Below are positions 1 to 1,656 of a stretch of DNA of 3,146 nt, piece by piece. The stretch is taken from IMG/VR virus record IMGVR_UViG_2547132271_000011. The stretch is one strand, 5' to 3'. The notes beneath the pieces were generated by a model that ran no database searches, was not told the DNA's origin, and saw nothing but the letters and a program-made list of their open reading frames with translations. Position 1 is the first letter of the stretch, and every line of letters begins with the position of its first letter. Origin of the DNA: a virus (taxonomy: Duplodnaviria; Heunggongvirae; Uroviricota; Caudoviricetes). A program made the position numbers and the translations under genes.

Positions 1-1083
1 ATGAAAAAATTAACAGTGGCAATTTCTGCTGTAGCTGCATCAGTACTGATGGCGATGTCTGCTCAGGCAGCTGAAATTTATAATAAAGACAGTAACAAGC
101 TGGATCTGTACGGGAAAGTTAATGCTAAGCACTACTTCTCCTCTAATGATGCAGATGATGGTGATACTACTTATGCCCGTCTTGGCTTCAAAGGTGAAAC
201 CCAAATCAACGATCAACTGACTGGTTTCGGTCAGTGGGAATATGAATTCAAAGGCAACCGCGCTGAATCTCAAGGTTCCTCCAAAGATAAAACCCGTCTT
301 GCCTTCGCTGGCCTGAAATTCGGTGACTACGGCTCCATCGATTACGGCCGTAACTACGGTGTAGCATACGACATCGGTGCGTGGACTGACGTCCTGCCAG
401 AATTCGGTGGTGACACTTGGACTCAAACCGACGTGTTCATGACTAAACGTGCAACTGGTGTTGCAACCTATCGTAACAACGACTTCTTTGGTCTGGTCGA
501 TGGCCTGAACTTTGCTGCTCAGTATCAGGGTAAAAATGACCGCACTGACGTAACTGAAGCCAATGGTGATGGTTTCGGTTTCTCCACTACTTATGAGTAT
601 GAAGGATTCGGCGTGGGTGCAACCTATGCTAAATCAGATCGCACTGACGGTCAGGTCGCCTATGGTAAGAGCAAATTCAATGCCTCCGGCAAAAATGCGG
701 AAGTATGGGCTGCAGGCCTGAAATATGATGCGAACAATATCTATCTGGCTACCACATATTCTGAAACTCAGAATATGACCGTTTTTGGTAATAACCATAT
801 TGCAAACAAAGCACAAAACTTTGAAGCAGTAGCACAATATCAGTTTGACTTCGGTCTGCGACCATCTGTTGCTTACCTTCAGTCAAAAGGTAAAGACCTT
901 GGTGTTCATGGTGACCGAGACTTAGTCAAGTATGTCGATGTCGGTGCTACTTACTACTTTAATAAAAACATGTCCACTTTTGTTGATTACAAAATCAACT
1001 TAATTGACGATAGTAAGTTTACCAAAACAGCTGGTATTGATACCGACGACATCGTCGCTGTAGGTCTGGTGTATCAGTTCTAA
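1..1083 (+). CDS. nmpC: Outer-membrane general porin precursor, OmpC/OmpF/PhoE superfamily, prophage-borne NmpC/Lc type (360 aa)
   Basis: Complete ORF from ATG at 1 to TAA at 1081-1083. Predicted signal peptide [23 protein letters not shown], then mature N-terminus [16 protein letters not shown] typical of enterobacterial trimeric porins. C-terminus GLVYQF ends in Phe, the beta-barrel OMP signature. Recognised from memory as NmpC/Lc-like; symbol is a best guess. No RBS or promoter visible because the window begins at the ATG. Confidence 0.92.
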
Positions 1084-1090
1084 TCTGATT

Positions 1091-1133
1091 ACGAAAAAGA
1101 TATGTTGCGGGAGGCTTTGCCTCCCCAACATAT
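1091..1133 (-). terminator. Rho-independent terminator for minus-strand transcripts (candidate tR'-like terminator of the late leader / Q readthrough)
   Basis: Imperfect inverted repeat 1100-1114 / 1120-1133 (core GGGAGG / CCTCCC, about 14 bp with one bulge, 5-nt loop). On the minus-strand transcript it is followed immediately by CTTTTTCGT (complement of 1091-1099). On the plus strand the hairpin is followed by TAAGTGGC, so it is not a canonical plus-strand terminator. Confidence 0.5.
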
Positions 1134-1159
1134 AAGTGGCTCCCTCAAGCCACTTCCTT

Positions 1160-1272
1160 TAGGAGCACAACCTTGCTTCTAACTATATAAACCTTCTGTT
1201 ATATATTACCCTTTATTTTTGGGGGCGTTGCAACGCCCCATTTTTAATAATTTTTAGTAAACAACTGGCATA
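1160..1272 (-). promoter_or_regulatory. Expected location of Q-dependent late promoter pR' and qut site with short late leader
   Basis: Positional inference only: in lambdoid phages pR'/qut lies directly downstream of Q and the leader ends at tR'. The region is AT-rich with several -10-like hexamers on the minus strand (TAATAT at about 1208-1203, TATATA at about 1188-1183) and a TTGCAA at the palindrome centre, but I could not assemble a convincing -35/-10 pair with 16-18 bp spacing. Confidence 0.3.
1222..1256 (+). terminator. Rho-independent terminator for plus-strand transcripts (likely 3' end of the porin mRNA, shielding Q from antisense readthrough)
   Basis: Perfect 18-bp palindrome GGGGCGTTGCAACGCCCC (1222-1239), GC-rich stem, followed on the plus strand by ATTTTTAATAATTTTT. 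On the minus strand the same hairpin is followed by A-rich sequence, so the function is orientation-specific. Confidence 0.55.
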
Positions 1273-1656
1273 TTAATTAGAGTTATTAACAACGATATCC
1301 ATCTCTAACCGGATATCTAATGCCATTAACATCCCTTCAATTATGCCCTCAGCCTTCTGTAACCTTTTCCCGATATAACCATCAGAACAGCAATGCTTAC
1401 CTGCCAGTGACATGAATGTCATACCGACTACATAATAATCTACTAATAAATCGTGCAAATCGCTGTTGTTCTTTTTCAGACGGGCCATGCCCCCGCAAAT
1501 AATCATCGCGTCATCGTCACAACATTGCGGGCGAGATTTTACTTTTGAAGTAATTAATCCCTTAAAACCGGCGGCAATGGACGACCAGGTCACATCTTCA
1601 TGATTATTAGCCGCCCACGCTCCCCAACGCTCAAGAACCATCTGAATATCACGCAT
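1273..1656 (-). CDS. quuD: Late-gene antitermination protein Q, DLP12 QuuD type (127 aa)
   Basis: ORF-track frame 1273..1671 trimmed to the ATG at 1656-1654, giving [24 protein letters not shown]..., recognised from memory as DLP12-type Q. GGAG at 1667-1664 lies 7 nt upstream of this ATG. The ORF-track start at 1671 is a TTG that adds 5 residues and has no RBS. Stop TAA at 1275-1273. Confidence 0.9.

Follow-up and report, generated by a model that had tools for sequence, protein, structure and literature searches.

What does a long, perfect palindrome do in the short gap between a prophage porin gene and a convergent Q antiterminator gene? The 18-bp palindrome GGGGCGTTGCAACGCCCC lies at positions 1222-1239 of the window, by which we mean the whole 3,146-nt stretch of DNA that was analysed, and is the longest perfect palindrome in it. 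A sequence-only reading of the window had drawn attention to this element, and had offered an RNA hairpin, a dyad-symmetric protein-binding site and a part of the qut/late promoter architecture as possible functions. The description behind that reading holds. On length alone, the palindrome is improbable by chance: a palindrome of at least 18 bp occurred in 45 of 3,000 dinucleotide-preserving shuffles (~1.5%). The spacer in which it lies is AT-rich, with 30–38% G+C around the palindrome, and the element is 33 nt away from the stop codon of the Q gene, quuD (1273-1275), so the label “Q-proximal” is right. Among the functions put forward, an RNA hairpin followed by a plus-strand U tract is the correct one. 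We are highly confident that the palindrome is the plus-strand, Rho-independent terminator hairpin of a transcription unit that consists of the nmpC/lc porin gene and its ipeX 3ʹ UTR. The observed and computed support for this assignment comes from the anatomy of the hairpin, the in vivo RNA 3ʹ ends of the K-12 allele, the linkage of the hairpin to a porin cassette, and the conservation of its stem. The element is already known: it is the ordinary nmpC/lc-ipeX terminator of DLP12/PA-2-type prophages.

The window is a segment of a DLP12/qsrʹ-type lambdoid prophage that begins at the porin ATG. The porin gene (1..1083, plus strand) is of the nmpC/lc type and encodes 360 amino acids (Pfam Porin_1, E = 1e-151). 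A porin of this kind is annotated beside quuD in E. coli genomes, and homologues are found in K-12 and PA-2; nmpC of K-12 is interrupted by IS5, whereas the porin gene in the window is intact. On the minus strand, quuD (1273..1656) encodes a 127-amino-acid Q antiterminator of the Q21/PF06530 family (Pfam PF06530, E = 1.5e-51), which also matches the Q21 structures 6p18 and 6jnx (E = 1.7e-6). The other minus-strand genes of the window are ylcG, rusA, ybcO, ninE and ybcN. The porin gene and quuD converge on a 189-nt spacer (1084-1272) that is 97–99% identical to the corresponding DNA of PA-2 (J02580) and DLP12 (434B, a derivative of phage 434 with an acquired DLP12 Q-lysis segment), with 97.4% identity over all 189 nt. 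Across 36 phage records, PA-2 and 434B among them, the identity of the spacer is 92–99%. The locus is common: 2191 of 5426 complete E. coli genomes (~40%) hold at least 80% of a 451-nt query made up of the porin 3ʹ end, the spacer and the Q 3ʹ end.

On the plus strand, both a terminator scan and RNA folding recover a hairpin in which positions 1222-1228 pair with 1233-1239 around a loop at 1229-1232 (UGCA). Its 7-bp stem (six G-C pairs and one U-A pair) and 4-nt loop have a predicted folding energy of -13.3 to -14 kcal/mol, and the hairpin ranks top among the terminator-like sites found in a consensus scan of the whole window. As had been pointed out from the sequence, a hairpin is possible on either strand (RNA folds of -13 to -14 kcal/mol on both), and the T/U run is confined to the plus strand (ATTTTTAATAATTTTT on the plus strand vs CAAAAATAAAG on the minus strand). 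The U-rich tract that follows the hairpin (1240..1255, plus strand) is short and interrupted, reading A U5 AA U AA U5. A G+C-rich stem-loop with a U-rich tract directly after it on the transcribed strand has the form of an intrinsic terminator. Its location is that of an intrinsic terminator too: the hairpin lies 3ʹ of a transcription unit on the same strand, 139 nt past the porin stop codon, and at the end of a cassette that is shared with plasmids.

RNA 3ʹ ends mapped in vivo fall within the U tract. Curated Term-seq 3ʹ ends have been published for MG1655 under three growth conditions (Adams et al. 2021, Supplementary file 1; PMC7815308). Among them are strong ends at 574367(-) (score 46,656) and 574366(-) (score 66,408), both listed in the tables for two of these conditions; they are flanked by ...GGGGCGTCTCAACGCCCCATTTTT|AATAATTTTT (longer, ...TTTATTTTTGGGGGCGTCTCAACGCCCCATTTTT|AATAATTTTT) (PMC7815308). 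When K-12 coordinates are converted to those of the window (K-12 = 575,612 minus window position), the two ends correspond to positions 1245 and 1246; on the porin strand, these positions lie within the U tract, 6–7 nt past the stem. RNA 3ʹ ends at such a place are the signature of an intrinsic terminator. The Term-seq data are for the K-12 allele, which has a CTCA loop and an nmpC gene disrupted by IS5. Trimming back to a stable hairpin could, in principle, also leave a mapped 3ʹ end; we infer that these ends are made by termination rather than by processing or trimming.

It is the porin cassette, and not Q, to which the hairpin belongs, because the hairpin accompanies porin genes on plasmids that lack Q and is absent from Q loci that lack a porin. 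The porin gene, 3ʹ UTR, hairpin and T tract recur on ~39 plasmids without a Q gene, where an HTH gene, on the opposite strand, takes the place of Q as the neighbour. The plasmid porin is diverged, and one match (H79) has 68% identity to the 451-nt query over the porin 3ʹ end and spacer. In an alignment of the phage and plasmid sequences, homology spans the porin, the 3ʹ UTR and the hairpin, and ends at the T tract; the plasmid hairpin reads AGGGCGT-TATC-ACGCCCT and is followed by TTTTT. No such palindrome follows Q in 1H12, PhiR40_1, Min27 or Morganella IME1369_01, which are porin-less relatives with Q proteins 66–87% identical to QuuD.

An alignment across relatives had been suggested as a way to tell RNA structure, which would be marked by compensatory changes, from protein binding, which would be marked by strict sequence conservation. 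We compared 89 loci: 79 IMG/VR loci with 98–99% identical Q, together with K-12, PA-2, 434B, a soil E. coli and six plasmids. Stem pairing is kept, with one double change, and strict sequence conservation fails at the loop. All seven pairs of the stem are retained, with no non-pairs, in 30 distinct sequences, and the 7-bp arms are kept while the loop differs. The four central bases are CTCA at 39 loci (K-12 and PA-2 included), TTCA at 22, TGCA at 22 and TATC at six; the perfect dyad, TGCA, is therefore one of four alleles and is found at 22 of the 89 loci. At the outer stem pair, the phage family has G-C where the plasmid family has A-T. At one locus (L013), a C-to-T change gives a G.U pair in plus-strand RNA and an A.C mismatch in minus-strand RNA. 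Covariation in the stem thus amounts to one double change, which is seen in six plasmid sequences and is probably a single event, and one G.U pair, among closely related sequences. Because the independent changes are few, we regard the covariation as supportive rather than conclusive.

The loop (1229-1232) is the most polymorphic spot of the spacer. Spacers that are ~99% identical elsewhere carry CTCA, TTCA or TGCA, at similar frequencies. This polymorphism is probably neutral.

How would the terminator act? RNA polymerase would start at the porin promoter and read through nmpC/lc and the ~160-nt structured 3ʹ UTR (ipeX). The GGGGCGU-UGCA-ACGCCCC hairpin would then form, and the RNA would be released in the AUUUUU run, at about position 1245. 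Both the porin mRNA and the IpeX RNA derived from it would thus end at this point, and the hairpin would close a self-contained promoter-gene-terminator cassette, or “moron”. We propose that, in the lysogen, where the porin is expressed, the terminator would prevent antisense read-through of the porin transcript into the convergent Q gene, and that the hairpin would contribute to the stability of IpeX. Beyond correct annotation the significance of the element is slight: it shows where the porin-IpeX transcript ends.

Morons, a concept of Hendrix, Juhala and colleagues, are promoter-gene-terminator units inserted in lambdoid prophages. The porin cassette resembles them in that a lysogen-expressed gene lies in the late region, oriented against the phage operons and equipped with its own intrinsic terminator, and in that the boundary of the cassette coincides with this terminator. 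It differs from them in that the 3ʹ UTR between gene and terminator is a regulatory RNA (IpeX) and in that the cassette is also found on plasmids. The closest known system is the nmpC/lc-ipeX terminator of DLP12 (qsrʹ) and PA-2 (J02580; Blasband et al. 1986), which is the same element, with the same position between the porin and quuD stop codons, 7-bp arms and a U tract. The loop is TGCA in the window and CTCA in K-12 and PA-2, and it is TGCA that makes the dyad perfect; the window also differs from K-12 in the intact state of its porin gene, described above.

The identity of the 3ʹ UTR as ipeX is supported by its position, length and homology. Castillo-Keller, Vuong and Misra reportedly placed ipeX between the nmpC stop codon and a predicted Rho-independent terminator. 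In the window, the 3ʹ UTR of the porin mRNA (ipeX region; 1084..1245, plus strand) contains three hairpins, a single-stranded block and the terminator, and folds much better than shuffled sequences (z = -7.8). The sequence immediately after the porin stop codon matches the DLP12/PA-2 region (97.4% over 189 nt). IpeX is described in secondary literature as a 167-nt RNA of DLP12 and PA-2 that is part of the porin transcript (PMC12197685). The distance from 1084 to the mapped 3ʹ ends (1245/1246) is 162–163 nt, compared with these 167 nt (PMC12197685). According to the literature, the IpeX copies of K-12 and PA-2 repress the synthesis of OmpC and OmpF. When the whole window was searched against Rfam, with E up to 5, the matches were at chance level only (TarB at 19.6 bits, for which the cut-off is 80 bits, and a fragment of an Mn riboswitch), and no described RNA family was found in the spacer.

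Within the 3ʹ UTR, an alignment of the phage and plasmid porin cassettes picks out the block AACCTTCTGTTATAT (1190..1204, plus strand). It is nearly invariant between the two kinds of cassette; a single plasmid sequence has a one-base change, at window position 1192. Judged from this conservation, AACCTTCTGTTATAT is possibly a functional, single-stranded part of IpeX. As a probe for a genome scan the 15-mer was rejected: it is too short for the 596 Gb searched, and the matches listed came from unrelated taxa and included no enterobacterial locus. In the plasmid cassettes (L005 2633-2782 and L211-L215, aligned with window 1084-1245), the 3ʹ UTR is IpeX-like. Hairpin 2, AACCTTCTGTTATAT and the terminator are kept, and hairpin 1 has a wholly different sequence with the same position and shape. 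The plasmid and phage 3ʹ UTRs could define one RNA family. Hosts of these plasmids include E. coli, E. albertii, E. marmotae, Salmonella and Citrobacter, and the replicon types include IncI1, IncK, IncFIA and IncFIB. A degraded chromosomal locus is found in the soil isolate E. coli SC455 (L006 2600-2920), where the porin, 3ʹ UTR and terminator (loop TTCA) are kept and ~100 nt of the quuD 3ʹ end is left, beside ybcM; here the cassette and its terminator have outlasted Q.

The ipeX region has two further features. One is another curated Term-seq 3ʹ end at window position 1136 (K-12 574476, minus strand; score 23,469), just past ipeX hairpin 1 and at the foot of hairpin 2, which may mark a weak upstream stop or an IpeX species produced by processing or trimming. 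The other is hairpin 1 as read on the Q strand (1131-1097, minus strand), where AUAUGUUGGGGAGGC-AAA-GCCUCCCGCAACAUAU is followed by CUUUUUCG, with CUUUUAG in many alleles. For transcription coming out of Q, this hairpin resembles a terminator, and it overlaps the last part of the porin gene; K-12 Term-seq has no Q-strand 3ʹ end at 1131-1097, in a prophage that is silent in that strain.

Does the terminator hairpin have a second function that involves Q? It might also set the amount of porin-strand antisense leak into Q, or stabilise the 3ʹ end of the Q mRNA as a minus-strand hairpin. We consider this very unlikely. If it were true, lysogenic expression of the porin and IpeX would be tied to the threshold at which the late genes are switched on, and the three loop alleles would be functional variants and not neutral ones. 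A related proposal, and a highly improbable one, is that the hairpin additionally acts in minus-strand RNA, where it would protect or mark the 3ʹ end of the Q transcript in a manner like retroregulation. Early transcription out of Q has to cross the spacer, and would produce, 33 nt past the Q stop codon, the same 7-bp hairpin (-13.3 kcal/mol). However, no U tract follows on the minus-strand side, and the K-12 Term-seq data list no Q-strand 3ʹ ends near the hairpin (PMC7815308), although this is weak evidence because the prophage is silent in K-12. The pattern of substitutions also argues against a role in the Q transcript: the sole one-sided stem variant, that at L013, pairs in plus-strand RNA only, as do several G.U pairs in the other hairpins of the 3ʹ UTR.

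Could the palindrome instead be part of the late promoter? The sequence-only reading had placed it exactly where Q-dependent late control is expected. TTGCAA (minus strand, 1233-1228) would then be the -35 hexamer of a Q-dependent pRʹ, and the palindrome would be part of the qut/Q-binding architecture. There is some likeness to pRʹ-qut-tRʹ regions (lambda 6S RNA; pRʹ of phage 21; StxS of Stx phages), in that the element lies near the Q gene and combines a G+C-rich hairpin with a U tract beside it. The annotated pRʹ of phage 21 begins 7 nt past the Q stop codon, and the minus-strand hairpin with CUUUUU at 1131-1097 could pass for tRʹ. Nonetheless, we find the proposal barely credible. The U tract of the window is on the strand opposite to Q, and no promoter of normal spacing accompanies it. 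The likeness of TTGCAA to a -35 hexamer stands, since it matches TTGACA at five of six positions and the TTGAGA and TTGAAA alleles retain TTG..A, but the centre is the variable part of the element. A -10-like TAATAT is present at 1208-1203, and TAATGT is found ~40 nt after Q in two relatives of QuuD; however, TTGCAA and TAATAT, the best manual candidate, are separated by an abnormal 19 nt, and a scan of the spacer found no sigma-70-like promoter (-35, 16–18 nt, -10) on the Q strand. Phage 21 is the annotated reference of this Q family, with SDPE and with QBE repeats ATTGAGCA/AATGAGCA between the -35 and -10 elements; the spacer has no homology to these repeats, nor to the pRʹ of Q933-type phages.

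Inheritance of the hairpin also argues against a late-promoter function. Up to the T tract, the DNA, hairpin included, is that of the porin cassette, which also occurs without any Q gene, and the porin-less relatives of QuuD lack this palindrome. Homologous spacers without the dyad retain Q and the late genes, an outcome that the sequence-only reading had itself named as telling against its proposal. The homologue of the Q933-type late promoter is found elsewhere, beyond the porin gene and upstream of essD, outside the window.

This homologue consists of TTTACG-16 nt-TATGCT, then AAACCCGCCG..CGGGTTTTT, with a hairpin and T run following; in K-12, where it lies past nmpC and upstream of essD, the homologous block reads GGTTTACGTACGTAAAAAATTGGTTATGCTGTTAAGAGTGGTTAC...AAACCCGCCGTCGAGCGGGTTTTT. 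At 74 of the 79 IMG/VR loci the block lies 1600–1650 nt downstream of the Q stop codon, on the Q strand. Its coordinates in K-12 are ~577,194-577,289 (L004 6195-6290), and phage PA-2 has it as well (L001 1131-1027). In Min27 and Sakai Sp5, whose sequences do not differ over the Q 3ʹ end and the 280 nt after it, TTTACG-16 nt-TATCAT is at the Q stop codon itself, and is followed by GAGTGGTTAC... and the hairpin AACCCGCCG..CGCGGGTTTTTTT. The start site of Sakai PRʹ has been mapped 258 nt upstream of the tRʹ 3ʹ end (Sy et al. 2020). Counted back from the tRʹ T run, in a genome version that differs from that of the paper, the start lies 7–8 nt after TATCAT. By homology, the block upstream of essD is probably the working late promoter of these phages. 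The porin cassette is thus inverted between a shortened Q gene and the block, and late transcription from the block would run away from the porin gene. Searches for the qut/pRʹ of QuuD hence belong upstream of essD and not beside Q. The block retains a remnant of an ancestral Q 3ʹ end (..GGTTTACGTACGTAA).

We likewise give next to no weight to a dyad-symmetric DNA site for a dimeric phage or host regulator, bound independently of termination. Conserved arms around a variable centre would fit two half-sites with a non-contacted spacer, and the change from G-C to A-T in the outer pair preserves the symmetry of the dyad. The arms are kept, yet no protein co-occurs with them in both the phage and the plasmid contexts, where the neighbours are Q and an HTH gene, respectively, and no candidate binding protein is linked to the palindrome. 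The L013 variant loses symmetry at the DNA level but retains a G.U pair in the RNA. Moreover, the conserved, one-sided T tract and the RNA 3ʹ ends within it are features of a terminator, and would be left unexplained by a protein-binding site. A bidirectional terminator is rejected on two grounds: the tail on the minus strand, CAAAAATAAAG, and the lack of a listed Q-strand 3ʹ end.

The boundary between the terminated porin cassette and quuD has a structure of its own. The DNA at 1246..1296 is common to neither the plasmid porin cassettes nor the Q933-type Q genes: homology to the plasmid cassette ends at the T tract, and homology to Q933-type Q ends at codon 120. This junction DNA carries the last seven codons of quuD and its stop codon (codons 121–127, about 1273-1297). 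QuuD is 77% identical to the 144-amino-acid Q of Min27/Sakai Sp5 over residues 1–126, with the similarity ending at about residue 120; after this residue, QuuD has seven unrelated residues and then ends. The tblastn matches of QuuD to the Q genes of 1H12 and PhiR40_1 likewise stop at residue 120. From these alignments, the break resembles a junction created within Q by recombination or insertion; if it is one, Q933-type proteins may be able to do without their last 24 residues. At the break in Q933-type homology, inside the quuD 3ʹ end, there is an inverted repeat, GATATCC..GGATATC (1294-1317), that is terminator-like on the minus strand by the scan.
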